64,000 nucleotides of DNA from a virus: IMG/VR virus record IMGVR_UViG_3300028840_006907, positions 224,001-288,000 of that record, one strand, 5' to 3'. Under the pieces are notes generated by a model, which was not told the origin of the DNA, searched no databases, and saw only the letters and a list, made by a program, of their open reading frames with translations. The first letter of the stretch is position 1, and the number at the start of each line of letters is the position of its first letter. Both the position numbers and the translations under genes were made by a program. This document shows positions 3,037 through 18,684 of the stretch, piece by piece.

Positions 3037-3039
3037 AAA

Positions 3040-6000: not shown

Positions 6001-9000
6001 AGGGCGTTTATAGAATCAGGTTTTTTAAGAGTCAGTGACGGTACTACAGCTTCTCCAATACCTTCATGGGGTGCTACTGGTGCCACAGGAAATACTGGGG
6101 CTACAGGATCCACAGGGGCTACAGGATCAGGGACTCAAGGAACAACAGGAGTTCAAGGATCTGCCGGGGCTACTGGAGCTACTGGACCGGCTGGAACTGG
6201 TTCTACAGGAGTCCAAGGTGTCCAGGGTGAAACCGGTATTCAGGGTCTCCAAGGTGATACGGGTGTTAGTTTAGGAGCAACAGGCTTGCAAGGTATCACA
6301 GGTCTCAGGGGATTCACGGGACTGCAGGGTCAAACCGGTGTTGCTGGGGAAACCGGAGTTCAGGGAGTGCAGGGACAAACCGGAGCTTTTGGTGGCCCTC
6401 CAGGAGAAACTGGCGTGCAAGGTGTCCAAGGAAACACTGGAGTACAAGGAACTACTGGAGTTCAAGGATCAACCGGAGTTCAAGGAATTCAAGGTCAGAC
6501 CGGAATTCAGGGAATCCAAGGAAATACTGGAGTACAAGGAATTCAAGGTAATACTGGAGTACAAGGTCAAACCGGAGTAAGTGGAGAAACTGGAGTACAA
6601 GGAACTACTGGAGTTCAGGGTATTCAAGGTCAAACTGGTATAGCAGGTCAGACAGGTATAGCAGGTCAAACCGGAGTTCAAGGAATCCAGGGAATTCAAG
6701 GTCAAACAGGTGCCCAGGGTTTAACAGGAGTAGCAGGTGAGACTGGAGTCCAAGGATCTCAGGGAAATACCGGAGTTCAAGGTATCCAAGGGCATACGGG
6801 AGCTGGGATACAAGGTACTACTGGTGTTCAAGGTTTACAAGGTCAGACTGGCTCTCAAGGTACTACTGGAATTCAGGGAGAAACTGGTGTAGGTATCCAA
6901 GGTCAGACGGGTGTTGCCGGTGTTGATGGCCAAACCGGAATTCAAGGAATCCAAGGAACCACAGGAGTTCAAGGTGAAACAGGAACTCAAGGAATTCAAG
7001 GAAATACCGGAATTCAAGGAACTCAAGGAAGCACAGGAGTTCAAGGAGAAACTGGAGTTGGTGCTCAAGGAACTACTGGAGTGCAAGGAATACAAGGAAA
7101 TACTGGAGTTCAGGGAACAACCGGAGTTCAGGGAATTCAAGGTCAAACCGGTGTTCAGGGAACACAAGGAGAAACAGGTTATATAGATTCTTCCAGTGTT
7201 AATCATAACGCTCTTCTTAATTTAACTGTTGGTGATGACCATACTCAGTATGCTTTTTTAGCTGGTCGTACTGGTGGGCAAACTATAAATGGTGGTGATG
7301 CTGCTTCAGACGTTTTAACTCTTCAAAGTACTACTGATACTACAAAAGGGAACATCATTCTTAATCCTATTAGTGGGGATGTCCCTGGTAAAGTTGGTAT
7401 AGGAGTAACATCTCCGATTTATCAATTACATGTTGGAGAGATTTTAGATGGCGGTACTGTAGGTATATGTATAAATAACCAGTATACTGCAAATGGATCA
7501 GTTGATGAAACTGCTAGTTTAATATATAGATTTGGTAGGCCACTCAGTCCTCAATATAGAGTAGCAGGTCAAGTATTAGTAGGTAAGGAACAGGATTGGT
7601 GGGATTATAATAGTACTGACGCTTATATGGCTTTTCATACTACTCGTGATACAATTTCACGTGAACAGATGAGAATTAATGCTCAAGGTTATGTTGGAAT
7701 AGGTACAACAAATCCCCAAGCTAAGCTTCATGTAACGACATTTGCTCAATTTGATGAAGGCTTTTCAACTAATATCGGTATAGGTGTTACCGCTCCTCAG
7801 GCACAGTTACATGTCGGAGAGAGTGTAACTGATGGAGATGTTTCAATAATTGTGAATAACTGGTCTTGGACTGGAGGGTCTGTAGATGAGACAGCTAGTT
7901 TACAATTCCGTTTTGGGCCTCCTCCAAGTAATTATTCTGCTGGTAAAATTTCTGCTCATAAAACTTTAGATTATATGAGTTTCGATAATAGAGACTCTTA
8001 TATGACTTTTAGTGTTGTAAATAATCAATCTGAAGTTGAGCGTATGAGGATTTTAAATGATGGAAAGGTAGGTATTGGTACAACTGATCCTCAAGAAAGA
8101 CTGCATGTAATTGATAGGGGTCAATTTGATATGGGGCTACAACAACCTATTGGTATAGGTGTAACGGCTCCATTAGCTGAATTACATGTTGGTAATAGTA
8201 CTAATGGTGGTGATGTAGGCATTATTATTAATAACCAATACAATACTACTGGATCAGTTGATGAAACAGCAAGTTTAATTTATAGATTCGGTACAGTAGG
8301 AAGTGCAAATTATCGAGTAGCTGCCAGAATTTGTGCTCATAAAGAATTAGACTGGCAATCTTTTGATAATGTCGATTCAGCTTTAGCTTTTAGGACTACT
8401 CGAAATCAATCTGAAAATGAAAGAATGAGAATAACTAGTGAAGGTGATGTAGGAATTGGTACTGTCACACCTTCAGAAAAATTACATGTAGAAGGTAATA
8501 TTTATACTACTAATGGTTTTCTTGCTGGTGGGAACATCCAAATTGAAGGGGACTTTTTAGGAGGGACTGATGGTAATTCTAATTTAGGCTCTACTTCAAG
8601 AAGATTTAATAACCTTTATATGGCTTCTTCGATAAATTATAATTCTGATCTAACCTTTGATTGTACGGGTACCCATGTAACCCTTACAACTGGTGGTAAC
8701 GTAGGTATAGGAACTACAAATCCCCAAGGATTATTTCATGTTTCTGATGATACCAATGGTGGTGATGTAGGTATTGTTGTTAGTAATCGCTATATTGGTG
8801 GTGGGTCAGTTGATGAAACAGCTAGTATGATTTATCGTTTTGGCCATCCGTTAGGAGTAGCTAATAAAGTTGCAGCCAGAATAAGTGCCCATAAAGAATT
8901 AGATTGGGCAAACTCTAATAATACTGATGCTGCTTTGATTTTCTGGACTACTCGTGATGCTGTTGAACGACAACAGATGAGAATTGATAGCAATGGTTAC

Positions 9001-10053
9001 TTAGGAATCGGTATAACTAATCCTCAGGAAATATTACATGTAGATGGTAATATCGTAGGATCATCTGGTTCTAATTTAGGGTCTGCTGCATTAAGATTTT
9101 CTAATCTTTATTTGGCTTCTTCTATAAACTATAATTCTGATCTTAATTTTGATTCAACAGGAACACATGTCACTTTTACAACAGGTGGTAATGTAGGTAT
9201 AGGTACTACAGATCCGCAAGCATTATTACATGTCTTTGATAGTACTAACGGTGGTGATGTTGAAGTTATAATTACTAATGACTATTATAGTGTTAGTTCG
9301 TTGGATGAAACTACCAGTATAACTTTTCAAAATAGAGGTCACGATGGTAATAGGTATACTGCAAGTAGAATTCTTTGTGGAAAAGAAGGAGATTTTAGTA
9401 TCTCTGATAGAAAAGGTTATCTAGCTTTCCATACAGTTAATCAAAGTTCATTTGAAAGAATGCGAATTACTTATGATGGTAATGTCGGTATAGATACTAC
9501 GGCACCTTTAGATAAGCTTTCTGTCGAAGGTCAAATGTCTGTGACTCTTGCAGGTGATCGAAAATTTAAAGTAGATAGTACAGGACAAATTTATTCCGAT
9601 GCAGGTACATCAATATTTACTCCTGCTGACCTTGCTGAATGGTCAAAGGTAGAGGGGTATCTGGAAGAATATGAGTTAGGTATGGTAGTACAACAATCCT
9701 GTGTAGATTTAACCGTTAAGCTAGCTGATAGCCCTTCTGAGAGAGTATATGGTGTGGTTACAAACCGTGCCACATTTTTGGGAAGTCTTACTGGTATTGA
9801 TAAGAAAATATTAAAAGAATTAACGGATAGTGAGATAGAAGATGAGTTCAATGCCAAAAAAATAGCAATGGTAGGGCATGTTCAAGTTCTGGTAAAGGGT
9901 ACCGTTAATATAGGTCAGTCATTGACTCTTTCTGATAAGAAAGGAATAGCACGGGGAGCTACAACTTTTGAAGAAAAAGCTCTGGCTCTTGGTATTGCAA
10001 GAGAAAGTTATGATTCAACCGATATAGGACTTATTGAGGCGAGATTATTATAA
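3040..10053 (+). CDS. giant fibre/structural protein: N-terminal Asp-box (BNR) repeats, collagen-like G-X-Y tract, five repeats of a ~120-aa module, C-terminal domain
   Basis: Repeated TxDxGxxW motifs (TDSGNSW, NDGTSW, TDGTTW, TNGGTSW, DDAGSTW); about 375 residues of uninterrupted G-X-Y; five modules each carrying GSVDETASLIYRFG and VGIGTTNPQ..LHV. Confidence 0.8.
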   Translation: MSEVYQGDYAPNLYNEEKRYYLFQAQQLTNLTDAELRDLHNISNTYVRRTVQAQIGDCAIQDGYKIAENTSDKSNNFLITGGSGTLDDPGMYYLKGYRLFLLGDIAYKDQTDTGTITDDGYTKTILPALTTPTGVTSTLNSLSLSNPTLICCGDTSAIANSSDWGRNWVDRNAMTSQNLNGSSLGDASVGYAVGNVGAVLRTTDSGNSWINIRTSLPTLPTNYQNVNFFDAYFVNSSIGWITGQSGAILKTINDGTSWTVQGSGVTTSDLSGVHGTGLTDVWAVGSSGMVVKTTDGTTWSQQASGTLFNLSRVHAINTLVAYAVGNSGTIIKTTNGGTSWSALTSDTTENLRDVHFTDLNNGWAVGDNGTITRTDDAGSTWDSSTIASVDLRAVTFYDTTGFTAGGSGEIYRTLDNTNWVKYRTDYVYIDFHLAEVSGDATSGSEYIDTSLVDATVGYPSANRLRVVSDVKVSEGWPAPADYTNTDATLQHYIAPLASIERSVGTSDITSANITDLRTVVRTIGEIDAALKDGSIGTSAIADGAITPDKLDSTGDYTMGSLSILGDSSIAGDLTIGGILVVSDYRTSTIMDNLVVRGSAQLGDSTAPYEDSVNIYGNITQVLDSTKIAYDIQTSSTTDASPIIKIVSDSTGSVWHVESKSQTTSSLFDATTQNMGYDFHLNHLGYEGGLFKLRDDASNHTITISKTAPGFRGSVLDVTSNSNDPTINIVNRALSDSTSLSIDQTHGTMITLNTLGDASGIDIYSQGSGRDLHIDHSGTLGIAVDITSSSAQVAMNLVNQMGPAVVITQNGDDEALLVLNKDSTTLGRALEINHRGSDVGLGVYNTGTGMGQLISHVGDSTHPALDIYVAGNEKGPALRINKANDETGEGIRVWNQGFSESLRLIQDRTDSSATVLLIESQSIGYDVSSSNWNIDSSGNIYTAGSITSDSTATVTSSKFAFDSTYYMTSTGMYLDNSGYDSSNPAVAGRAFIESGFLRVSDGTTASPIPSWGATGATGNTGATGSTGATGSGTQGTTGVQGSAGATGATGPAGTGSTGVQGVQGETGIQGLQGDTGVSLGATGLQGITGLRGFTGLQGQTGVAGETGVQGVQGQTGAFGGPPGETGVQGVQGNTGVQGTTGVQGSTGVQGIQGQTGIQGIQGNTGVQGIQGNTGVQGQTGVSGETGVQGTTGVQGIQGQTGIAGQTGIAGQTGVQGIQGIQGQTGAQGLTGVAGETGVQGSQGNTGVQGIQGHTGAGIQGTTGVQGLQGQTGSQGTTGIQGETGVGIQGQTGVAGVDGQTGIQGIQGTTGVQGETGTQGIQGNTGIQGTQGSTGVQGETGVGAQGTTGVQGIQGNTGVQGTTGVQGIQGQTGVQGTQGETGYIDSSSVNHNALLNLTVGDDHTQYAFLAGRTGGQTINGGDAASDVLTLQSTTDTTKGNIILNPISGDVPGKVGIGVTSPIYQLHVGEILDGGTVGICINNQYTANGSVDETASLIYRFGRPLSPQYRVAGQVLVGKEQDWWDYNSTDAYMAFHTTRDTISREQMRINAQGYVGIGTTNPQAKLHVTTFAQFDEGFSTNIGIGVTAPQAQLHVGESVTDGDVSIIVNNWSWTGGSVDETASLQFRFGPPPSNYSAGKISAHKTLDYMSFDNRDSYMTFSVVNNQSEVERMRILNDGKVGIGTTDPQERLHVIDRGQFDMGLQQPIGIGVTAPLAELHVGNSTNGGDVGIIINNQYNTTGSVDETASLIYRFGTVGSANYRVAARICAHKELDWQSFDNVDSALAFRTTRNQSENERMRITSEGDVGIGTVTPSEKLHVEGNIYTTNGFLAGGNIQIEGDFLGGTDGNSNLGSTSRRFNNLYMASSINYNSDLTFDCTGTHVTLTTGGNVGIGTTNPQGLFHVSDDTNGGDVGIVVSNRYIGGGSVDETASMIYRFGHPLGVANKVAARISAHKELDWANSNNTDAALIFWTTRDAVERQQMRIDSNGYLGIGITNPQEILHVDGNIVGSSGSNLGSAALRFSNLYLASSINYNSDLNFDSTGTHVTFTTGGNVGIGTTDPQALLHVFDSTNGGDVEVIITNDYYSVSSLDETTSITFQNRGHDGNRYTASRILCGKEGDFSISDRKGYLAFHTVNQSSFERMRITYDGNVGIDTTAPLDKLSVEGQMSVTLAGDRKFKVDSTGQIYSDAGTSIFTPADLAEWSKVEGYLEEYELGMVVQQSCVDLTVKLADSPSERVYGVVTNRATFLGSLTGIDKKILKELTDSEIEDEFNAKKIAMVGHVQVLVKGTVNIGQSLTLSDKKGIARGATTFEEKALALGIARESYDSTDIGLIEARLL
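6070..7186 (+). repeat. collagen-like G-X-Y triplet-repeat tract (9/18-nt periodic) inside the 2337-aa fibre gene
   Basis: Direct reading: GxTGxQG codon repeats; produces spurious ORFs in other frames. Confidence 0.9.
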
Positions 10054-10269
10054 TAACTTTTCAATCCTGTTGAGAATGGTGACCAGTTCACTTCGGCATT
10101 TTTCAATTTCATTGAATCTGCCGAAGAATTGGTTACTATGCATTAAATTAGCATCTGTTTTTACTTTTCTTAAATCAGAAGCTTGTTGACCTAATCTTCC
10201 TCTACGTTTTAACCATCTCTTTACAAGTTTTCTCAGATTTTCAACTTCAGTTTTTATCTCATCTTTCAT
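10048..10269 (-). CDS. hypothetical small basic protein
   Basis: 73 aa ORF convergent with fibre gene; no motif. Confidence 0.3.
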   Translation of the reverse strand: MKDEIKTEVENLRKLVKRWLKRRGRLGQQASDLRKVKTDANLMHSNQFFGRFNEIEKCRSELVTILNRIEKLL

Positions 10270-10275
10270 AATATT

Positions 10276-12027
10276 TTATGCCTTGTGAAATCGAAAACTA
10301 TTATTAAATAAATAACTAGGTTTTGACTCAACTGATCTTCCCATGTATGTTCTGGTTTTTGAGTAGCTTATATTTAAACATTTCTGAGCCCTTGTGCATG
10401 CTACGTAAAATAATCTCTCTTCCTCTTTTTTATCTACAGCAAAACTATGAGGCCATACTCCTTCTTCTACACCTACAACTAGGACTGTATTAAATTCAAG
10501 ACCTTTACTGGCATGAGCCGTTAATAACTTAACCCCATGTCCGGTATCTTCTTCCAGAAATGTACTTGCTAAAACCAGGTCCTCTATGGTTCTAAATTCT
10601 CTGATGATTTCTAAAAATGAAGTCAGCATTGTACGGTCACTATCTTTTTTAATAGTAGTTCTATAATCTGTTTTATATAAGATAGTCTCAACAGCCTCTG
10701 AAGGAGTCATGCCCTTTATTTCATTTAAGATATTTATAAGTCCTCTTATACGGGGCATTTCATAAGCCATAGTTTCTAGATAAGACCAGCCTTCTCGAAG
10801 TAAAATTTCTTTTTTCTTTGCTCCGAATCCACGAGGGGGTACATTTACGATTCGGTTTAAACTTTCTAAATCATCTCTATTCGTACTGGCTTTGAGAAAA
10901 CTCATTAAATCTTTGGGAACTCTACGCTTATAATAAGGAAGGGCACCAACAACTTTATATGGTATGTGTTTACTTGCAAAAGCTCTTTCAAAGAATAAGG
11001 ATCTTGCATTTACGCGAAACAGTATTGCGGTATTTTCGTAATCGTTGGCTCTTATAAGGGCATTGGATATTTTCTCTGCCTCGTCTTCCTGACTATTAAA
11101 TCCGGTGAAAGATATTGATCCTTGGAAAGGGTTTTTAGCAACCATCTGATTACCGTATTGAATGTATTGATTGGCATGTTTTATGATCTCTGGAGAACAT
11201 CTGTAGTTGAAACTTAAGTGACATACAGTCGGTTTATGTAATTCTATAAAATGTTTTATGTTCTCAGGATGGGCACCCCTAAATTGGTAAATGGACTGAT
11301 TAAAATCAGCCACTACAAACAATGTCTTTGAATTTTTTGTGTATAGTTTATTTATAATGTCATATTGAATTAAAGATGTATCTTGAAATTCGTCTACTAA
11401 TAGATGAGGCCATTTTTTTGAGTAAAAATCAGCGCAATCTTTATGTCCTAAACAGTCATTGGCATAAATGAGTAGGTCATCGAAATCACATGCATTATTT
11501 TTTAGAAGAATCTCTTGGTAAGTTTTATATACAAGTAAAAAATTTCCTTCATTCAGTTCTGATGTAAACTGCGAAAGTCTGAATGATTTCCTGACATTAT
11601 CGGACCCCATTGATTTGATATGGCTAATAGCCAAGACATATGTTTTGGGTTCTCCGGGCAATTCCCGAGATTTAATGATTGTTTTTACAATTGATAACTG
11701 ATCACCGTCATCATATATACTAAAATTAGGTTTTATTGGTAAATGCCGTGTAAAATTTCTGATTATCCCTACACATAAACTGTGAATTGTGCTGACTTGC
11801 ATTTTTCCAATAGAGTCACAATGTAACTTTAATCGCTCTTTCATTTCATTGGCTGCTTTATTCGTAAAAGTAATAGCACATATATTATCTGGAGAAATAC
11901 CTTGTTCCATAAGCCTTAAAATCTTGGCTATAAGACATCGGGTTTTTCCTGATCCTGCCGAGGCATTAACCATTGTAGGTGATGCAGCTTCAACGGCTCT
12001 GGTTTGTTCTGTATCTAATGATATCAT
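10276..12027 (-). CDS. superfamily 1 DNA helicase, UvrD/Rep/PcrA family
   Basis: Walker A AGSGKTRCL; Walker B LLVDEFQDTS; motif IV FNYRCSPEII; motif VI TAHASKGLEFNTVLVVG; 583 aa. Confidence 0.85.
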   Translation of the reverse strand: MISLDTEQTRAVEAASPTMVNASAGSGKTRCLIAKILRLMEQGISPDNICAITFTNKAANEMKERLKLHCDSIGKMQVSTIHSLCVGIIRNFTRHLPIKPNFSIYDDGDQLSIVKTIIKSRELPGEPKTYVLAISHIKSMGSDNVRKSFRLSQFTSELNEGNFLLVYKTYQEILLKNNACDFDDLLIYANDCLGHKDCADFYSKKWPHLLVDEFQDTSLIQYDIINKLYTKNSKTLFVVADFNQSIYQFRGAHPENIKHFIELHKPTVCHLSFNYRCSPEIIKHANQYIQYGNQMVAKNPFQGSISFTGFNSQEDEAEKISNALIRANDYENTAILFRVNARSLFFERAFASKHIPYKVVGALPYYKRRVPKDLMSFLKASTNRDDLESLNRIVNVPPRGFGAKKKEILLREGWSYLETMAYEMPRIRGLINILNEIKGMTPSEAVETILYKTDYRTTIKKDSDRTMLTSFLEIIREFRTIEDLVLASTFLEEDTGHGVKLLTAHASKGLEFNTVLVVGVEEGVWPHSFAVDKKEEERLFYVACTRAQKCLNISYSKTRTYMGRSVESKPSYLFNNSFRFHKA

Positions 12028-12338
12028 TAATTATAATTCCAAAATCTTGTTTTCATACTTATAACTGAAGCACCCGCTACAATGTTAACGAGTAATCCAT
12101 AATTATAAGTATGGTTAATGTTATGTTTCTTTTTTACATCGTAAAGTTTTTTTAATGTTAATACTATTTCAGCTACTTCTAATAATAATGGAACTTCTTT
12201 TATTTCCTCTGAAGACTTGACTACTGGTTTATATAAATCGCTAAAAATCTTTTTAAAATAAACTTCTACCTCTCCTTTATCCGTCTTGAAAAAAATTCGA
12301 TACCTCCCCTTACCATTCTTTTTTAGTACCTCCATCAT
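12027..12338 (-). CDS. hypothetical protein
   Basis: 103 aa ORF in minus-strand block; start overlaps helicase stop. Confidence 0.4.
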   Translation of the reverse strand: MMEVLKKNGKGRYRIFFKTDKGEVEVYFKKIFSDLYKPVVKSSEEIKEVPLLLEVAEIVLTLKKLYDVKKKHNINHTYNYGLLVNIVAGASVISMKTRFWNYN

Positions 12339-12416
12339 AAGTCACTGCTAGTTTGGCTTTAATTAGCATTTTACCTAAATCTTTTCCGTCAACAAAGAAA
12401 TAAGTCATGAATTTAG

Positions 12417-12638
12417 TCATGTTTTATTCTTATTTTTTGAATTGCTCTTTTCATCGATTATATATTTTTTAATAGTATATACCTTTATTATTCCGAGTTT
12501 TTTAAATATATAATCTTGAAATTCTTTTTCTAATTTATCGAAATCATAACTTACTAATTCTAAAGCCCATTTTACCCTGAAATCTTTTTCAGCTAATTGA
12601 ATCAATTTTATTTGAAATTCTGTTTGTGTTAATTCCAT
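12417..12638 (-). CDS. hypothetical protein
   Basis: 73 aa ORF. Confidence 0.3.
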   Translation of the reverse strand: MELTQTEFQIKLIQLAEKDFRVKWALELVSYDFDKLEKEFQDYIFKKLGIIKVYTIKKYIIDEKSNSKNKNKT

Positions 12639-12658
12639 AAATTTTAAGAAAAGTCCTT

Positions 12659-12934
12659 CTATATTTTAGTTAATGGCTCGTCGTATTTTTCAAGAGTTTC
12701 ATCTCTTTTAACCAATTTGCAGTTTACAAATTCAGGCATTCTCGGGTCTTTATTAAATGTATCCACTAATTCCTGAGCATCATCTTTAAATAGACAACAT
12801 GCTTCGTGTGGGTCTTTCACGAAATGTGTCCATGAGTCATTCTCTGAACTGCGAATTTTTTTCATAGCATAAAAAGTACCATTCGGGTGTTGGATTAAAT
12901 AATCCTGGCTAGTATCTGTGTAAAAATCGTTCAT
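12659..12934 (-). CDS. hypothetical protein
   Basis: 91 aa ORF; contains HPNG but no downstream Cys, so not a confident E2. Confidence 0.4.
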   Translation of the reverse strand: MNDFYTDTSQDYLIQHPNGTFYAMKKIRSSENDSWTHFVKDPHEACCLFKDDAQELVDTFNKDPRMPEFVNCKLVKRDETLEKYDEPLTKI

Positions 12935-13089
12935 AATATACCGCCTTTTGAATGAGTGTGAATAAGTTAATAGTGAGTCCTTTATAAATATTATACCAGT
13001 CTACCCTTGAAACTCTCCCAAAAAAATTTTAATAAAAAATGTGATGGTTTGTAATTCGTTGAGAAGTATAAAATTATAAAACAAAAAAA

Positions 13090-13428
13090 TTAGTCTAAAA
13101 ACTTCTCAATATTTTCTATTGAATTAATGATTTTACCATTTTCTTGTATGAAATAAAATCTTTTTCCACATTTTATACAACTTATTACAGCCATGTTGGG
13201 AACAACTTCTTTAAAATGAAATTGATTATTGATTTGATCTATTACTGATTGCATATTTGAGAAGATGGTATTTCTTTGATATAATGTGAAGACATATTTA
13301 CAGTGAGGGCAGATAATTCGATGAGGATCAACAATTTTTTCCTTATGTTTTTTTATAAGTTCTATGATAAAACTTATAATAATGTAAATACTGAGAAAAG
13401 TCATGGGAAAAATTAATAATTCTTTCAT
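13090..13428 (-). CDS. hypothetical membrane-anchored zinc-ribbon protein
   Basis: N-terminal hydrophobic segment; CPHC...CIKCG paired-Cys motifs. Confidence 0.45.
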   Translation of the reverse strand: MKELLIFPMTFLSIYIIISFIIELIKKHKEKIVDPHRIICPHCKYVFTLYQRNTIFSNMQSVIDQINNQFHFKEVVPNMAVISCIKCGKRFYFIQENGKIINSIENIEKFLD

Positions 13429-13429
13429 T

Positions 13430-13813
13430 CTAAAGATAATCCTCTATTCGTTTAGCCTTTTCATTCAGATATAATAGGACTTTTTCATCATCTTTGATTT
13501 TACCTTTATCATCGATATATGAAGTCATCTCAATAGATTTGATAGGTTTAACAGTCCCATGATTGATTTCAATTTTTCTATGTACTCCTTTTACTAACAA
13601 GTCAATTTCTTCTTTCTCATCTGAGTCCCAGTGGTACTCTGGGAATAAATAATTAATCTGATTCTTACCATAACCTTTAAATCGACTCAGGATGAAACTG
13701 TTATCAAATTTGTTAAATATGCCTAAAGTCGAATTTCTTGCCATTATAAGATACAGGCAATTGTGTATACATTTATTTAATGGGACATATGATTTAAATT
13801 TCTCTATGCTCAT
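13430..13813 (-). CDS. hypothetical protein
   Basis: 127 aa ORF immediately downstream of E1-like gene. Confidence 0.4.
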   Translation of the reverse strand: MSIEKFKSYVPLNKCIHNCLYLIMARNSTLGIFNKFDNSFILSRFKGYGKNQINYLFPEYHWDSDEKEEIDLLVKGVHRKIEINHGTVKPIKSIEMTSYIDDKGKIKDDEKVLLYLNEKAKRIEDYL

Positions 13814-13828
13814 TGAGTAATATATTTT

Positions 13829-14470
13829 TTATCTATCAAATTCTGAAATTTTCATATCTTTTAAAGTGATTATATAATTCTTTTTAACACCACTCTCAAT
13901 GAATTTGATTAATGACTCCGATGCTACTGCCACTGCCAGAAGTATAATATTCCTGGCCAATGGGTACTCGCATACATCAGGAGCTATCGTGTCTTTTGGG
14001 ACGGTATAAGATTCGTTCCATATTATTTCCGCGTAATCCTGAGACAGCCCGACATGTAAACAGCTCAAACCATTATCCTTACAATATTGATAAACTAATT
14101 TTCGGCTAATATTATTATCAAAAGAATCGATGATAATATTTGGTTTTTTCAAATATTTACTCACAGTAGTTTTATTAAGTTCTTTACTATTGGCATTCAA
14201 AACAGTTTTGGTTGAAGCATATGCTCTCATTTTCATAGTCGCTACTTTGTAGGTACCTTTTTCATTTTGGTTCCAGATCTGGGTACCATTATTGTGAGGT
14301 TCAATTCTGTCTTTATCGATAATTGTAATTTCTTTGAATCCCTGTCGAACTAAATTATCACAAAGATTTGACCCTATTGCTCCGACACCACAGAGTGTAA
14401 TTGGGGTTGTTGATAATTTACCAACTACTTCTTCAGATCGATACATTCTTTCATGTATTAATAAATCCAT
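13829..14470 (-). CDS. ThiF/MoeB/E1-like adenylyltransferase (ubiquitin-activating-like)
   Basis: Rossmann glycine loop LCGVGAIGSNL followed by IIDKDRIEPHNNGTQ (E1 DxDxVExSNLNRQ-like); 213 aa; adjacent to JAB protein. Confidence 0.65.
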   Translation of the reverse strand: MDLLIHERMYRSEEVVGKLSTTPITLCGVGAIGSNLCDNLVRQGFKEITIIDKDRIEPHNNGTQIWNQNEKGTYKVATMKMRAYASTKTVLNANSKELNKTTVSKYLKKPNIIIDSFDNNISRKLVYQYCKDNGLSCLHVGLSQDYAEIIWNESYTVPKDTIAPDVCEYPLARNIILLAVAVASESLIKFIESGVKKNYIITLKDMKISEFDR

Positions 14471-14474
14471 AATA

Positions 14475-14999
14475 TCATCCTATCCTAGCTATAATGCGAT
14501 CTTTTAACAAGACAAAGGGAATTTCAATACAACCTACAATCCGGTCTTTGTCTCTTTTATATAAATAAAATCTTTGTACTTCTGATTTGATTCCACATAA
14601 TAACGGTTTACCCAAAGCTTTGACCCAACCAGTCATAGTTTTATCATCTAAGGATGAAGGTTCCATTATATTACTTGGATGAGTATGATTAAAACCTACT
14701 ATTTTATTTCTGTCTCTGATTACTTTTTCCCAGTCAAAATCAACTGAACCAGGACCACCAGTGGATTCATAGATTAGTCTACCATAAATCCATTTGCAGT
14801 ATTTTTTACCATATATGATCCAACAATTTTCGTTAATTGTTTGTACTACTTCAATAGCTTCTATTGTTAATTTATTTTTATTGTAAATACCTTTATATGT
14901 TCGACCACATTCTGGGCATGGCATTCTTTGTGTTTCATTTTCTGTAATCCAGCATATATATTTTCCGCACTTACATGTAAATTCACTGCTTTCGGGCAT
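14475..14999 (-). CDS. JAB/MPN+ (JAMM) metalloprotease with N-terminal zinc ribbon
   Basis: Exact JAMM signature HTHPSNIMEPSSLD (HxHx7Sx2D); N-terminal CKCG...CPECG. Confidence 0.7.
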   Translation of the reverse strand: MPESSEFTCKCGKYICWITENETQRMPCPECGRTYKGIYNKNKLTIEAIEVVQTINENCWIIYGKKYCKWIYGRLIYESTGGPGSVDFDWEKVIRDRNKIVGFNHTHPSNIMEPSSLDDKTMTGWVKALGKPLLCGIKSEVQRFYLYKRDKDRIVGCIEIPFVLLKDRIIARIG

Positions 15000-15025
15000 A
15001 GGGATATATCCTTATTTTAGATTTT

Positions 15026-15925
15026 CTAATACAACGTTCTACTTATTTGATGAGTGCGTTGACCCTCTTTTATTACAGAAATTAATGCTTTTAAATCATA
15101 GTCTTTATCACCAACATGACCTGTTTCATGGTCGGTTAAACAGATGCCTGCAGTAATAACGTGGTGACTTTGATCTTTAGTAACAATAGTATTAAATTTC
15201 TCTCCATCGATTTCATATGTTACATAAATATGATCCGATTTTTCATCACTGCTCAGGTATTTACCTCCGGCAAATTCTATATCACGTTGAATCTTTGTTT
15301 TTTTCTTTTCTTCAAGTGCTCGTTCACGTTCTTCTTTGATTTTTAAATCGATTTTGTATTTTATGTTAAAAGCAATTTTCTCCTCCAATGTCAGACCAGA
15401 GAATTTTAATTTAGATGGGTCTCTGAATTCTTTCAGGGACTCATTAAGATAATCTGTAATCATCGGATCGGCTGACATATCCATTGAATCAAACCAGATA
15501 TTAGCTCCGTCAAATCGGCATAGACATTTAGAAAATGTTGTAACCATATCATCGAAAAGAAGAACTGGGTATAATTCTGATACTTTTAATCCCAGATGAT
15601 TACTCTTTATCGGGATCCCAAGATAAAAATCTTTCTTTTTATGTACTAAAACCATTCTTATCTTTGGTAAATATTTAAGATAAGATTGAATCTCATCTAT
15701 TTCCGCTAAATCTATTGCTTCAGCCCGTTTATTATCAAGTGCTTTGAATTTGTACCATCCCGGTTCTGTTTTCGGGATGTTTAAGTAATGAATAATTCCT
15801 TGAATACGGATAATGATTCGGTCATTATAATACACAGGAGAAATGATAGTCTTTTCAGTCATCATTTCTTCCTGTTTCCCTATTTTATCAATAAGGTTTA
15901 AAATATTATCTTTTCTTACGGTCAA
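15026..15925 (-). CDS. hypothetical protein
   Basis: 299 aa ORF between JAB and Ro60-like genes; start overlaps Ro60-like stop. Confidence 0.5.
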   Translation of the reverse strand: MTVRKDNILNLIDKIGKQEEMMTEKTIISPVYYNDRIIIRIQGIIHYLNIPKTEPGWYKFKALDNKRAEAIDLAEIDEIQSYLKYLPKIRMVLVHKKKDFYLGIPIKSNHLGLKVSELYPVLLFDDMVTTFSKCLCRFDGANIWFDSMDMSADPMITDYLNESLKEFRDPSKLKFSGLTLEEKIAFNIKYKIDLKIKEERERALEEKKKTKIQRDIEFAGGKYLSSDEKSDHIYVTYEIDGEKFNTIVTKDQSHHVITAGICLTDHETGHVGDKDYDLKALISVIKEGQRTHQISRTLY

Positions 15926-17462
15926 AAGATTTCCTCACGGGTAAAGGTGTATCCATGATCTCATATAGAAGATCGAGTTTTGATTTTCTGGATAGCAATG
16001 GAATTAATCCAGGCAATCCATAGTAATCGCTACCTTCAGGTTCATAGTAATCGAAAGGTATTCTAGCTTGTTTTAAATACATGCTGAATTCTTTACGACT
16101 CCATGAACTTGGAATGTAAATAATAGTAATAGTAGGAGTCACATTAAATTTTTTAACATAATTATCCCATATCTCAACGAAAAATGGATTATTATTTTCA
16201 CCTTCATCAGTGACCACTATTATCTGTTCTACATAATAGTTTTTTCTAATAAGGTAATCTAATGCTATACCTATGGAAGTCCCACCATTACTTTTTACAG
16301 GTCTGAAAGCCCTTTCCCAGGCAGACATATTCGGTTCATTAGCTGTGATCTCTCTGGCCATTGTATCAAAAGTAATAGCATAGAGAGGAGCTTCTGTAGC
16401 ACCTGAAATAAGAGCCGCAACATTTTTTCCGACTTCGATGGCTTGAGTCATAGAACCTGATTTATCGATAAAGACTGCAGTAGGTACTTTTATAACACCT
16501 TTCTTTTTAATTTGCTGATCTGCAATTTCATCGAGGATCTTTTGAGATTCCTCATTTTTGATCCGACCTGTTTTCTTTGCTTCTTTGGATTTTAAAGCTG
16601 ATACATTTTTAGCTTTTTTAGCTTTTTCCAATTTAGCCGTAATCAATGTTTTTGTATCCTCATTGTCCATGGCACCACGTTCTTCTAGGGAAGCATAGTT
16701 ATTAATAACTTCCTGTGGAGACATAGCATTGATTAGAGCAATCAGAATTGTAGGAGTGATTTGATCAACCAAACCTACAGCCACCGTATAAGGTACTTTA
16801 TGTTCTATAATCAGCTTTGCCACTTCAGTCGGATTATCAGCTTGTGCTATTTTTTCGAAAACATTTAATTTACTGTCCGTAGGACGTTCATTTCCGAAAA
16901 GAATCTTCTGAGCACGTTCACTAGGTGCTATACGAAGAGTAGCATATAATCCTTTAAGATCTTTTGGACTTTTTAGGGCAATAGCATCAAAAAGATCGTT
17001 GTTGGTTTCAATATATTGAAGAAATTTCTCAACATCCCTTTTAAAGGCAGTAGGAATATTTTTGTAAAGACCTACATTTTTTTCTTCAATTTTTACTTCA
17101 TCGATCATTTTTTTCTTCATTTTTATTTTTTTGCCCGTTTTATTTCTGATCTTTATTTTTTTACCTTTAATAAAACCGACCACACGTCTTTTAAGATATA
17201 CAGGTATTTCCCTGAAGAGGGCTAGCCCAACTTCACGGTTGTCAAGAAATTCATCAACAATAAGTGAACCGATGAATACTTCTTTATGATCCCGAATATC
17301 TCCATTCTTGTAGTACCAGCTTCCAAGGTGGGCATAAAACAGCGGATCTGCTTTTTGTAATTCAAGATGGGTATTTTTTAATTTATCTAGGTCCCGGTGA
17401 GGGCAACTCAGAAATGAGTTAAGCATGTTAACTCTGATATCATTTTCGTTAGCTTGGTTCAT
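15906..17462 (-). CDS. rsr: Ro60/Rsr-like protein (TROVE module plus C-terminal vWA domain with MIDAS motif)
   Basis: MIDAS motif AVFIDKSGSM in C-terminal third; IVVTDEGEN resembles Ro60 IVFTDNETF; N-terminal GSWYY motif resembles Ro60 GGTYY; 518 aa; structured tRNA-like RNAs encoded divergently. Confidence 0.7.
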   Translation of the reverse strand: MNQANENDIRVNMLNSFLSCPHRDLDKLKNTHLELQKADPLFYAHLGSWYYKNGDIRDHKEVFIGSLIVDEFLDNREVGLALFREIPVYLKRRVVGFIKGKKIKIRNKTGKKIKMKKKMIDEVKIEEKNVGLYKNIPTAFKRDVEKFLQYIETNNDLFDAIALKSPKDLKGLYATLRIAPSERAQKILFGNERPTDSKLNVFEKIAQADNPTEVAKLIIEHKVPYTVAVGLVDQITPTILIALINAMSPQEVINNYASLEERGAMDNEDTKTLITAKLEKAKKAKNVSALKSKEAKKTGRIKNEESQKILDEIADQQIKKKGVIKVPTAVFIDKSGSMTQAIEVGKNVAALISGATEAPLYAITFDTMAREITANEPNMSAWERAFRPVKSNGGTSIGIALDYLIRKNYYVEQIIVVTDEGENNNPFFVEIWDNYVKKFNVTPTITIIYIPSSWSRKEFSMYLKQARIPFDYYEPEGSDYYGLPGLIPLLSRKSKLDLLYEIMDTPLPVRKSFDRKKR

Positions 17463-17483
17463 AATATCTCATCCTCCTTATGT

Positions 17484-17813
17484 TCAGGTTTCAATTTTTC
17501 CGAAAGTAGCATTTGGTCTAACTGTAATGTTACCATTTTTATGGTGTTCAACAACTAATTCAGCAAATTCTGATGCTGGTCTATCATAATGATCTACTAA
17601 AGCCAATTTAATTTGTTCACCAGTTATATTATCCGATGTGATCTCGGTTCCTGGTTCAATCCCGAGTTGTTCCCATCTGTCTTCTGGGAAAAGATCTTTG
17701 AGATTAATATCTTCAGTTTGACCATCATACATTATATGGACTTCACTCATATGAGCCTCCTTGTAATAAGTTAAAAAAAGAGTCCCGTATATTATACGAC
17801 ACGAGATTAACAT
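17484..17813 (-). CDS. hypothetical small acidic protein; true start probably at internal Met (MSEVH) preceded by AAGGAGG
   Basis: ORF track 109 aa; strong SD upstream of internal ATG near 17750. Confidence 0.4.
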   Translation of the reverse strand: MLISCRIIYGTLFLTYYKEAHMSEVHIMYDGQTEDINLKDLFPEDRWEQLGIEPGTEITSDNITGEQIKLALVDHYDRPASEFAELVVEHHKNGNITVRPNATFGKIET

Positions 17814-17867
17814 TTCATTAAGTAAAAAATTGGGTAGAATATAAATTCTTGTGTGTCATCATGGTAA

Positions 17868-17896
17868 ATAACTTTTTTAAAAAAATTATTGACACA
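17868..17896 (+). promoter_or_regulatory. sigma70-like promoter (TTGACA, 17 nt spacer, TATATT) upstream of the tRNA and structured-RNA array
   Basis: Direct reading of consensus -35 and near-consensus -10 with 17 nt spacer, about 60 nt upstream of tRNA. Confidence 0.6.
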
Positions 17897-17955
17897 CTTA
17901 AAATTTATGGTTATATTATTGACAGTTCTGCACTCTAACTTTTGATGCTTACATA

Positions 17956-18032
17956 GAGAAAATAGCTCAGTTGGTCAGAGCGCGAGATTTAGGTTCTTGA
18001 AGTCTTCGGTTCAATTCCGAATTTTCTTACCA
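17956..18032 (+). tRNA. canonical tRNA, class I; hand-folded anticodon UAG (decodes CUA) with encoded CCA
   Basis: Hand fold: acceptor GAGAAAA/TTTTCTT, D-arm GCTC-AGTTGGTCA-GAGC, anticodon stem CGAGA/TCTTG with loop TTTAGGT, T-arm TTCGG-TTCAATT-CCGAA, discriminator A then CCA. Confidence 0.7.
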
Positions 18033-18081
18033 TAAAATTAGCACCTTCAACTTGTGCAGAACTACTTAAACCAAGAAATAA

Positions 18082-18199
18082 AAGTCAGACATTCTAATTA
18101 TTAGGGCGTACATGGCGTTAAAACCATGCTTCCTGCAGAAATCAGGAAGCAATCTCTGGGCCAAGGCTCAGGGGCGCACTGATGACTTATGTCTGACTT
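18082..18199 (+). ncRNA. structured RNA element (Y RNA-like, non-tRNA-like) closed by a 9-11 bp terminal helix
   Basis: Terminal inverted repeat AAGTCAGACAT/ATGTCTGACTT; internal hairpins CATGG/CCATG and GCTTCCTG/CAGGAAGC; shares TCTAA..GGGC.TACA motif with downstream tRNA-like units. Confidence 0.4.
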
Positions 18200-18250
18200 A
18201 ATATAGATTGTAAAGTGTTGTAAAATAAATTTGATCTTTGAAAATTATAG

Positions 18251-18436
18251 GATAATGCCTTCTAACCTGTTGGGCTTACAAATTTTACTGGTTCGACTCC
18301 AGGTTCCGCCTCTCGGTCCTTTTGTAAAGATTGTAAAGGATCAGGAGGCGGAACAAGCCGGGTGGTCTGGCGATTGAATGCAAATCAATTTATTTGAAAT
18401 TAACGCTCTTTTAACTTGGGCATTTATCCTTTTTTA
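18251..18436 (+). ncRNA. tRNA-like structured RNA unit 1 (Y RNA/YrlA-like or permuted tRNA): terminal helix, T-arm, closed acceptor-like helix, D-arm, anticodon-like hairpin (loop ATGCAAA), U-tract
   Basis: T-arm CTGG-TTCGACT-CCAG; 10 bp helix GTTCCGCCTC/GAGGCGGAAC; D-arm GCC-GGGTGGTCT-GGC; hairpin ATTGA/TCAAT; flanks GGATAATGCC/GGCATTTATCC pair; TTTTTT follows. Confidence 0.6.
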
Positions 18437-18478
18437 TAGTAATTTATAATTTTATATAAAGTGATCTTTGAAAATATG

Positions 18479-18668
18479 AGGTAAGTGCCTCCTAACATAA
18501 CGGGCTTACAAATTAATAGGGTTCAACTCCCTGTTCCCCCGCCTAAGTCTTTGTCATATAATGATTAAGATTTGGGCGGGGGAACGAGCTGGGTGGTTCA
18601 GCAATCAACGTTTAATTGATGAAAAACATTTTTACGCTCTTTTAACTTAGGCACTTACTCTTTTTATT
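18479..18668 (+). ncRNA. tRNA-like structured RNA unit 2 (Y RNA/YrlA-like or permuted tRNA); anticodon-like loop CGTTTAA
   Basis: T-arm AGGG-TTCAACT-CCCT; helix GTTCCCCCGCC/GGCGGGGGAAC; D-arm GCTG-GGTGGTT-CAGC; hairpin ATCAA/TTGAT; flanks GAGGTAAGTGCC/GGCACTTACTC pair; TTTTT follows. Confidence 0.6.
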
Positions 18669-18684
18669 AAATTGAAATTACAAG

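Follow-up and report, generated by a model that had tools for sequence, protein, structure and literature searches.

A Ro60-like gene cassette with a candidate ubiquitin-like protein and a family of handle RNAs is conserved in huge phages and bacteria

The 64,000-nucleotide stretch analysed here (the window; positions 224,001 to 288,000 of IMG/VR virus record IMGVR_UViG_3300028840_006907) contains a block of minus-strand genes at 10048-17813. Half of this block is a conserved and apparently undescribed cassette (13829-17750), made of five genes encoding, in this order, a candidate ubiquitin-like protein (Ubl), a Ro60-like protein, a protein with an OB fold and an invariant cysteine (OB-Cys), a JAB metallopeptidase and an E1-like adenylating enzyme. 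Searches with tblastn and hidden Markov models indicated that the cassette order is kept in about 20 huge-phage contigs. The block as a whole is composite and consists of the conserved cassette, a fast-changing islet of small open reading frames (ORFs) and a segment formed by o103, a UvrD-type helicase and o73a. We lean, by a little, towards the view that the conserved core and an RNA array next to it encode a particle of the Ro60/Y-RNA type coupled to Ubl conjugation, the biochemistry of which we infer. A preliminary description of the window had treated the entire block as an accessory region. For the E1/JAB/Ro60 part this was not sustained: the five-gene cassette is syntenic in phages and bacteria and comes with an RNA family.

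The candidate Ubl is always the first gene of the cassette, in phage and bacterial loci alike. In the window, gene callers placed it at 17484-17750 on the minus strand, encoding 88 amino acids (aa) that end in ...RPNATFG-KIET; the corresponding ORF had been listed as 17484-17813 (109 aa), and public gene calls show that it truly begins at 17750. Gly84 is kept in 119 of 120 family representatives. Thirty-four of these 120 proteins end at the Gly, 49 have a tail of one residue and 24 a tail of two residues, and the tails are not conserved in sequence. The C-terminus reads F/W/Y-Gly, not Gly-Gly. A Gly end followed by short and variable tails is the signature of a ubiquitin-like or ThiS-like precursor. 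JAB is present in 10 of 12 phage loci and in 8 of 80 bacterial loci, and tails of 1-4 residues were found only in loci with JAB (7 of 18) and in none of the 49 single-copy Ubls of JAB-less bacterial loci. Forty-nine of the 50 Ubls from JAB-less bacterial loci stop exactly at the Gly, the exception being a tandem di-Ubl that is also Gly-ended. The confinement of tails to JAB-containing loci links JAB to the maturation of the cassette's own Ubl. The tandem di-Ubl is encoded in locus L060 (ORF 889-1209), from a Tepidisphaeraceae metagenome-assembled genome (MAG), where no JAB was detected; each copy ends in ...FG, resembling a polyubiquitin-type precursor.

An E1/JAB pair had been named in the preliminary description, and both identifications held. 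The JAB gene (14475-14999, minus strand) encodes a JAMM/JAB metallopeptidase of 174 aa with an N-terminal zinc ribbon (CxC...CxxC). It scored below the Pfam cut-off for Prok-JAB (1.6e-4, 21.9 bits versus 25; PADLOC JAB, 4e-4) but has the full E...HxHx7SxxD motif, and the metal-site residues E57, H105, H107, S115 and D118 are invariant in 11 sequences. The zinc ribbon of the window protein spans 54 residues (CKCG...CPECG; window 14475-14640) and is absent from the shorter JABs of its relatives (118-151 aa). The E1 gene (13829-14470, minus strand) encodes a minimal adenylating enzyme of 213 aa with a single ThiF/MoeB-type domain, which matched Pfam ThiF at 83.3 bits (cut-off 28.1; 1.9e-23); its top NCBIfam match, under cut-off, was the ThiS adenylyltransferase PRK08644 (2e-19). 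The GxGxxG, Arg, Lys and DxxDN...R motifs are all present, as invariant residues G28/G30/G33, R42, D52, K75 and D115/D118/N119/R123, and Cys167, in 'DVCEYPLARN', a candidate for the catalytic Cys of the crossover loop, is invariant in 12 sequences. Membership of the PRTRC system was considered and rejected: E1 hit PRTRC_ThiF at 32.7 bits against a cut-off of 144.75, and no other PRTRC gene is present.

The OB-Cys gene (15026-15925, minus strand) encodes 299 aa. The N-terminal half contains one or more OB folds (weak matches to tandem-OB proteins), followed by a helical linker and a small beta+alpha C-terminal domain. The family comprises 891 representatives at 50% clustering, all of about 280 aa. 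In 132 of these representatives conservation is 100% at G260 and C262 and 99% at D277, and C262 is the single invariant cysteine. The OB-Cys gene abuts the E1 gene in 49 of 51 bacterial loci. Both the 88-aa and the 299-aa proteins, which had been left unrecognised in the preliminary description, belong with the E1/JAB/Ro60 set.

The largest member of this set (15906-17462, minus strand, 518 aa) is a Ro60-fold protein with a HEAT-repeat ring and a C-terminal vWA domain. An AlphaFold2 model built from 15 homologues (pLDDT 80.5) gave full-length Foldseek matches to 9kop, 1yvp, 2nvo and 9l5y (E 5.5e-11 to 4e-8, TM 0.52-0.64). Among the matched structures are Ro60 of the Thermus phage phiLo (9kop, 5.5e-11), Xenopus Ro60 (1yvp) and D. 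radiodurans Rsr (2nvo). These full-length structural matches indicated that the earlier label 'Ro60-like' is correct at the level of the fold, although it is invisible to Pfam. The MIDAS is complete, D333-x-S335-x-S337, T395 and D419 being invariant in 15 sequences. More than 1000 homologues were found overall, labelled only VWA_2 or VWA_CoxE. In the model, the HEAT ring has a long and very lysine-rich beta-hairpin as an insertion (KKIKIRNKTGKKIKMKKKMIDEVKIEEK; residues 101-130, window region 16050-16160); the family conserves this hairpin, which could be an extra RNA-binding arm.

The 1.2 kb beyond the block (17813-19016) had been overlooked in the preliminary description and is not empty: an RNA array occupies 17924-18866 on the plus strand. 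It is preceded by a sigma-70-like promoter candidate at 17889-17917 (TTGACA-17-TATATT; a consensus match only, 11/12), 6 nt upstream of the first unit, and closed at 18899-18940 by an intrinsic-terminator-like hairpin, a pattern match consisting of a 14-bp stem and then the T run TTTATTTTTT. Unit 0 (17924-18063, 23.9 bits with covariance model R1) contains a canonical tRNA-Leu(TAG) at 17956-18032 (65.9 bits). The two ends of its RNA pair as P1 (AGTTCTGCAC/GTGCAGAACT), and its motifs read UCUAAC-N7-GCUUACA ... CAACUUG. Unit 0b (18082-18199, 20.2 bits with model R1) has P1 AAGTCAGACAT/ATGTCTGACTT, the motif UCUAAU-N7-GCGUACA and a hairpin as cargo. Units 1-3 (18240-18436, 18470-18667 and 18673-18866), defined from repeats, folds, RNAalifold and model R1, are three direct repeats of about 200 nt that fold alike and carry a permuted tRNA-like cargo. 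Each has the terminal stem P1, a 4-bp P2, a T arm (GGUUCRANUCC) and a long hairpin, the first 7 bp of which form a perfect acceptor stem; past this hairpin come two unpaired nt, a D arm (GCCgaGuGGUaaGGC) and then a 5-bp stem with a 7-nt loop. The loop fits the anticodon-loop pattern (U33, purine 37) in units 1 and 3, and unit 2 has a G at 33; the 'anticodons' of the three units are GCA, UUU and UGA. YrlA-type Y RNAs are defined by the order T arm, closed acceptor and D arm with paired RNA ends (PMC4201824), and this order, paired ends included, is found in units 1-3. These units are tRNAs with a closed acceptor end and a variable region opened into the RNA termini, which corresponds to the YrlA topology with an additional anticodon arm.

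The element that all units have in common is a handle, formed by P1 (a 10-11-bp stem made from the two ends of the RNA), the 4-bp P2, YCUAAC-N7-GCUUACA as the 5' motif and GCNY-N4-5-RACUY as the 3' motif, and the cargo that it holds varies. Covariation in the RNA family extends to all helices: analysis of 15 sequences found 92% of cells paired and double changes in 41 of 47 pairs; with 40 sequences, 46 of 47 pairs had double changes. In both sets 0 of 500 shuffles reached the observed values, and structures slid by 1-3 columns paired at 34-46%; the alignments were fitted to the model, so that the figures are somewhat inflated, and the margin is large. Because nhmmer with the three window units returned marginal matches only, a covariance model was needed. 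The model built from these three units detected full-length copies in almost every related phage locus. Phage handle RNAs lie directly upstream of the Ubl gene on the cassette strand. The distance from array to Ro60-like gene is 0.1-1.1 kb, inside the limit of about 4 kb that applies to YrlA-type RNAs, which are expected on the strand of the Ro60 gene; array and gene share a strand in phage and bacterial loci other than the window and its relative L021. The strict 5' motif occurred 23 times in 433 kb compared with 4.6 times in shuffles; 21 of these 23 occurrences are on the array strand, grouped into arrays of 2-5 that lie no further than about 3 kb upstream of a Ubl or Ro60-like gene. One phage locus (L007) has four handle units carrying a tRNA, hairpins, a tRNA and a permuted tRNA. 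Ordinary tRNA arrays, for example those at 21-25 kb of L001 and 1.7-6.5 kb of L009, gave no full-length match to the handle model at E <= 1. A bulge-helix-bulge-type splicing motif and an RNase III stem were also considered as identities for the handle, and neither fits a P1 of only 10-11 bp with loops of 9-12 nt.

tRNA calls in or beside handle arrays often have odd anticodons: ATT, AAT, CTA ('Pyl'), TCA ('SeC') and ATC. Such calls were made at L007 8993-9068, L008 8164-8238, L011 7423-7498, L023 8533-8792, L043 6057-6131, L058 5475-5550 and L087 6431-6503. This suggests suppressor-like tRNAs or non-decoding look-alikes, not ordinary tRNAs.

Of 12 untruncated phage loci, 10 have all five cassette genes in an unchanged order, which is also kept in L021-L024; extra genes often sit between them. 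Carriers of the cassette include the 595-kb uncultured phage LR756511.1 and contigs of 40-467 kb from IMG/VR. The full layout of the window (fibre, glycosyltransferase, RNA gap, cassette, small ORFs, o103-UvrD and fibre) is found in L021, a 512-kb relative with a Ro60-like protein 68% identical to that of the window. None of the window's fibre, glycosyltransferase and terminase genes was found near the cassette in more distant relatives, which indicated that the cassette is not tied to the fibre module. An 8-kb contig from a MAG labelled candidate division KSB1 (L025) has the full five-gene cassette at 67% identity to the window, and its RNAs, like those of the window, are on the strand opposite to the cassette. 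This contig probably comes from a huge phage and was binned with a bacterium, and some NCBI names of homologues ('Candidatus Nanoarchaeia archaeon') look like the same misbinning.

The genes near the phage cassettes have a recurring theme, which is RNA, and specifically the RNA of translation. Upstream of the cassette, L020 (on the same contig as L007) encodes an RNA ligase (PF09414) together with a homologue of DUF6527/BubE (29.5 bits, which exceeds the cut-off) at 2692-4082, and straight after E1, at 13762-15643, an AAA_33 (PNK-like) kinase and a WGR-PARP protein. tmRNA genes directly follow E1 in L010 (20509-20909) and L011 (18861-19209). Band_7 genes are near the cassette in L022 and L024, and L024 has a rhodanese gene 5 kb upstream.

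The cassette is also present in bacteria. A scan limited to one genome per species found 271 cellular relatives of the Ro60-like protein (42-47% identity), and 80 loci were fetched. The hosts are mostly filamentous cyanobacteria and Planctomycetota, together with Acidobacteriota and Armatimonadota, and the complete chromosomes among them include those of Calothrix sp. NIES-2100 and Nostoc linckia NIES-25. At least 44 of the 80 loci have the Ubl, Ro60-like, OB-Cys and E1 genes in the phage order; JAB was found in 8 of these 44, all from Planctomycetota, and most of the remaining loci are short contigs. In bacterial chromosomes the covariance model located handle RNAs between the genes for the Ubl and the Ro60-like protein, and their loop motifs are the same as in phages. 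One copy, in the Calothrix locus L058, weakly matched Rfam YrlA at 23.5 bits (E 0.06), compared with a gathering score of 69. The Calothrix cassette adjoins leuCD and is not in a defence island; a WYL-domain gene lies inside the locus.

Two further conserved genes lie between the cyanobacterial Ubl and Ro60-like genes and have no counterpart in phages: a paralogue of ribosomal protein L7/L12 (Pfam 8e-23; 17 loci; L058 7340-7732) and a 242-aa protein without a family (29 loci; L058 6439-7167). The cargo of the handle RNA at L058 10230-10420 joins AGUACGAGAGGAA, the sarcin-ricin loop (SRL), to a copy of the L11-binding region of 23S rRNA, part of the GTPase centre (GAC), and this copy exceeds the Rfam gathering threshold for LSU at positions 1093-1148. 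In about 24 cyanobacterial loci (for example L071 10287-10406, L063, L076 and L090) the SRL+GAC element recurs, placed after the Ro60-like gene and before that for OB-Cys; it is confined to cyanobacteria, and none was found in the window or the phage loci. Upstream of the Calothrix cassette, a piece resembling the tmRNA 3' end is followed by the 3' motif of the handle (L058 5300-5354). An SRL and L11-region cargo beside an L7/L12 paralogue suggests that the cargos generally mimic RNAs of translation.

The particle that we favour would work as follows. The five RNAs of the window would be transcribed from their own promoter, with a common handle and with cargos that differ, each a real tRNA or a tRNA mimic. 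By analogy with Ro60 on the terminal stem of Y RNAs, the Ro60-fold ring would bind the handle, and the OB-Cys protein may bind single-stranded or tRNA-like parts of the RNA. The JAMM peptidase would remove the KIET tail and expose Gly84 of the 88-aa protein, which the minimal E1 would adenylate, loading the Ubl onto Cys167. From there the Ubl would move to Cys262 of OB-Cys, acting as an analogue of an E2, a step that we put forward only tentatively. It would then go to a protein held by the particle, either a subunit of the particle itself or one docked on the tRNA-like bait. The phage would probably use the particle to protect or mend the tRNA pool while it infects, for instance through capture or tagging of host defence nucleases that cleave tRNA. 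A more specific proposal, and a doubtful one, is that the RNA baits guide the tagging: a protein that docks on or cuts the bait would be marked with Ubl by E1 and OB-Cys on the particle, the RNA mimicry choosing the substrate. The baits would then be tRNA anticodon arms in the phage and, in cyanobacteria, the SRL with the L11-binding rRNA, tmRNA ends and tRNAs, an assignment that we hold with equally little confidence. In a bolder variant the adenylated Gly would be transferred to the RNA itself, in the manner of aminoacylation, to give a protein-RNA conjugate.

Several observations weigh against a Ubl-coupled Ro60/Y-RNA particle. The 88-aa protein showed no similarity to ubiquitin, MoaD or Pfam Ubl families with a PDB profile, with Pfam on 13 members or with hhalign. 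The test for a UBC (E2) fold around the candidate catalytic Cys of OB-Cys was negative, and no recognisable E2 or E3 is near E1. The Ro60-like protein has no Pfam TROVE match, only VWA_CoxE at 0.043. Rfam reported only the tRNA at positions 17400-19100 of the window, with no Y-RNA match at E <= 5, and the YrlA motif GNCGAAN0-1G, normally near the 5' end, is missing from the alignments, in which YCUAAC, GCUUACA and AACUUG are conserved. In the window and in L021 the handle RNAs are on the strand opposite the cassette. L017 is without JAB, and L015 has the Ro60-like gene and RNAs with the other four genes absent within 10 kb, so that parts of the cassette can occur apart. The handle could also be a signal for tRNA processing, not a site for protein binding.

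This last possibility has a fuller form, in which the array is a plain tRNA operon, the handles are leader-trailer processing stems like the RNase III stems round rRNAs, and the neighbouring proteins are unrelated. Canonical tRNAs do sit inside the handles of window unit 0 and of two L007 units, and tRNA arrays are common in huge phages. We nevertheless regard this as improbable: many units have no tRNA and hold a hairpin or a permuted mimic with a closed acceptor, the loop motifs are conserved from phages to cyanobacteria beyond the pairing, the excess of the strict 5' motif (23 versus 4.6 expected) comprises 21 copies on the array strand near the cassette, and ordinary tRNA arrays in the same loci gave no full-length match to the handle model at E <= 1. 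It is similarly improbable that the block is a generic early or accessory region of unrelated genes, with E1 and JAB acting on a host Ubl defence of the CBASS, Bil or Bub type. The strand opposite to that of the structural genes, the turnover of family-less small ORFs between close relatives, the resemblance of the JAB and E1 domains to Cap3 and Cap2 in PADLOC and the other neighbourhoods of the cassette in more distant phages would all suit such a region. A fixed order of five genes accompanied by an RNA family in phages and chromosomes is, however, not expected of unrelated genes; the Calothrix copy is beside leuCD and not in a defence island, and the link between JAB and tails indicated that JAB serves the cassette's own Ubl.

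The two other explanations keep the cassette together and change what it does or for whom. As a sulfur relay, the 88-aa protein would be a carrier of the ThiS/MoaD/TtuB type, which E1 would convert to a thiocarboxylate for thiolation of the adjacent tRNAs and tRNA-like RNAs, while OB-Cys would be an RNA-binding persulfide carrier and JAB would do no more than mature the carrier protein. The top E1 matches are adenylyltransferases of the ThiS/ThiF type, the enzyme consists of one 213-aa domain, near which no E2 or E3 can be recognised, tRNA or tRNA-like genes are always adjacent, and one relative (L024) has the rhodanese gene 5 kb upstream. The Ubl/E1/JAMM sets of Thermus (TtuB/TtuC) and archaea (SAMP/UbaA) are known to carry out both tRNA thiolation and conjugation. 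Set against this, the cassettes of about 100 loci have no PP-loop ATPase (TtuA/Ncs6/MnmA/ThiI), cysteine desulfurase or conserved rhodanese, the carrier would end in F/W/Y-Gly and not Gly-Gly, and the Ro60 ring with its MIDAS would be left without explanation; we consider a sulfur relay quite unlikely. Somewhat less far from our preferred particle is a captured bacterial system for immunity or toxin surveillance, in which the bacterial cargos would be decoys of translation RNAs for sensing toxins that cleave RNA, the Ubl arm serving to signal or to neutralise. Its occurrence in chromosomes of filamentous cyanobacteria and Planctomycetota, cargos that mimic tRNA, the tmRNA end and SRL+GAC, the WYL-domain gene in the Calothrix locus and the DUF6527/BubE and PARP genes near the L020 phage copy are consistent with this origin. 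PADLOC matches, on the other hand, are limited to generic E1, JAB and helicase domains, and no nuclease, pore or protease effector is conserved in the cassette. Such a capture appears unlikely to us, as does the corresponding role of the phage copy in superinfection exclusion or in countering the host's own copy. This reading overlaps with the particle proposed above, the chief difference being the beneficiary.

Conservation of Ro60 and Y RNAs extends from bacteria to humans, and to our knowledge the purpose of the Ro60 vWA/MIDAS domain and of the tRNA-like modules is still unclear. The phage phiLo Ro60, of which the structure is solved, works with a pair of Y-like RNAs that lie upstream and binds the PNPase of the host (PMC12135203). 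Like phiLo phiRo60-Yrl1/Yrl2, Salmonella Rsr-YrlA/YrlB and D. radiodurans Rsr-Yrn1, the cassette has a HEAT-ring and vWA protein of about 500 aa and several small RNAs within about 1 kb of its gene, the ends of which are paired into a stem; as in those systems, the RNAs contain an internal tRNA mimic (T arm, closed acceptor, D arm) that is missing from some copies, as it is from YrlB. Unlike them, the window protein has no TROVE match, GNCGAA/CGAA is replaced by a different conserved handle, the cargo may be a full canonical tRNA or contain an anticodon arm, the window RNAs are on the opposite strand, and no link to RtcB or PNPase was seen here. The obligatory synteny with Ubl, E1, OB-Cys and often JAB is a further difference from Ro60 loci, as far as these are reported in the accessible parts of the literature.

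The conjugation arm resembles SAMP/UbaA/HvJAMM1 and TtuB/TtuC/JAMM in having a small protein with a C-terminal Gly, a single-domain E1 of the MoeB/ThiF type with a Cys, a JAMM protein and no canonical E2 or E3, and in its ties to tRNA biology. It differs in the F/W/Y-Gly end, the absence of a rhodanese domain, the extra invariant-Cys protein coupled to E1 and the embedding in a ribonucleoprotein, and the NCBIfam equivalog scores for UbaA and desampylase were far below cut-off (28.5 versus 450 and 16.9 versus 130). Prokaryotic ubiquitin-like systems have lately been shown to act in the conflict between phages and hosts. Among them Bil, Bub (6E/DUF6527) and type II CBASS Cap2/Cap3 have a Ubl or Ubl-like C-terminus, an E1 domain and a JAB able to mature the Ubl (PMC11601596). 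The PADLOC E1-E2 and JAB models for these systems match the cassette E1 and JAB, the E1-E2 models aligning only in the adenylation part. Unlike these systems, the cassette has no detected E2 of the UBC fold, its 213-aa E1 lacks the IAD-AAD-CYS arrangement or a fused E2, the window has no DUF6527, and the genes are encoded by phages as well as cells and tied to Ro60 and RNAs. The three kinds of system are related to the cassette in mechanism, but their defining E2 and multi-domain E1 are absent here. A small phage Ubl with a C-terminal Gly beside a JAB is also known from TAPI/TAPK of lambda/T1 tail assembly (PMC1779556). The window cassette is likewise near tail-fibre genes; unlike TAPI/TAPK, it has an E1 and no NlpC/P60, and it is unlinked to fibre genes in distant relatives and bacteria.

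A full-text literature search, in the portions that could be accessed, returned no paper joining Ro60/TROVE with E1, JAB or Ubl genes; an earlier description is possible, most likely in Burroughs and Aravind 2016 (Nucleic Acids Research, on RNA repair systems). In the available sections of a jumbo-phage survey TROVE appears only as a cofactor of RNA repair, and those of an Asgard-virus preprint list Ro60 and E1-like genes in one genome and do not connect them. A Ro60-Ubl cassette would concretely and testably link RNA surveillance with protein tagging, in huge phages and in genetically tractable cyanobacteria (relatives of Nostoc and Calothrix). With cargos of tRNA, permuted tRNA and, in bacteria, a composite of ribosomal GTPase-centre RNAs beside an L7/L12 paralogue, the handle-plus-cargo RNAs would form a novel class of modular mimics. 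The cassette points to protection of tRNAs from host anticodon nucleases beyond the simple encoding of spare tRNAs, and bait-guided tagging, if true, would be categorically new.

The remainder of the block is of a different nature. Twelve ORFs of at least 70 aa tile 10048-17813, all on the minus strand, with sizes of 73, 583, 103, 73, 91, 112, 127, 213, 174, 299, 518 and 109 aa in order; the plus-strand ORFs within these limits are short (51-91 aa) and overlap the minus-strand ones. The block is flanked on the plus strand by a terminase-like ORF (1144-3036; PHROG terminase large subunit, 1.2e-12), a collagen/BNR fibre of 2337 aa (3040-10053) and a methyltransferase/GT2/TPR/GT9 protein of 875 aa (19016-21643). 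GC skew in 1-kb bins is negative in 7 of the 8 bins of 10001-18000 and positive in all bins on either side, a flip that fits an inverted transcription unit. The strand arrangement given in the preliminary description, with a minus-strand block between plus-strand flanks, was thus confirmed by both the ORF tiling and the GC skew. The window is part of a huge-phage contig, and two contigs have identical copies, one of 469 kb in ENA and one of 388 kb from JGI; a distant blastn search with the entire block found no DNA match among 50,697 phage records.

The helicase proposed earlier was verified. It is an SF1 enzyme of the UvrD/PcrA/Rep type (10276-12027, minus strand, 583 aa; Pfam UvrD-helicase 4.5e-71, UvrD_C 1.4e-48) that matched NCBIfam PcrA at 3e-115, yet remained under the equivalog cut-offs for PcrA, Rep and UvrD, and shares about 34% identity with PcrA-like genes from records of Firmicutes phages. 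It is found at the same place only in L021 (64% identity). The stop of o103 (12027-12338, minus strand) overlaps the helicase start at 12027; o103 matched no family in Pfam, PHROG, PADLOC or NCBIfam, and a counterpart of 36% identity is immediately upstream of UvrD in L021, so that the o103-UvrD pair is common only to the sub-clade of the window and L021. The last gene of the block, o73a (10048-10269, minus strand), is a small coiled-coil-like ORF with no Pfam, PHROG or PADLOC family and no tblastn match in L021. Neither the helicase nor the small ORFs were found near the cassette in more distant phage relatives.

Between o103 and E1 lies the variable islet (12417-13813, minus strand), four ORFs of 73, 91, 112 and 127 aa. 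Pfam, PHROG, PADLOC and NCBIfam yielded nothing usable for them, just a weak zinc-ribbon match for the 112-aa ORF and matches to PHROG families marked as unknown, and none of the four occurs in any relative, L021 included. The latter has nine other small ORFs between E1 and o103, unrelated to those of the window. Replacement of the islet in a relative with otherwise the same layout is what one would expect if these were accessory or anti-defence genes with a fast turnover. The accessory or anti-defence role once proposed for the whole block therefore retains support for the islet and o73a, which lack families and, in the case of the islet, are swapped in the 68% relative. The block was said to hold five small ORFs without recognisable motifs. 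The count is six, and although no usable family was found for any of them, the 112-aa ORF combines a hydrophobic helix at its N-terminus with a CxxC...CxxC zinc ribbon. Comparison of the block across relatives found the cassette conserved, but no gene in it with an annotated housekeeping role. The best reading of the variable small ORFs and the o103-UvrD pair is that they are separate passengers sharing the direction of transcription. A weak PADLOC match of one block protein to Cas6 (0.0045) was treated as noise.

Two giant fibre-like proteins of the window, encoded at 3040-10053 (2337 aa) and 22251-31487 (3078 aa), contain long collagen-like G-x-y tracts. Long antisense ORFs are numerous in these genes and are probably artefacts of the repeats. 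The GC content of the fibre genes reaches about 0.5 in places (6-7 kb, 22-28 kb and 30-31 kb), compared with about 0.35 elsewhere.

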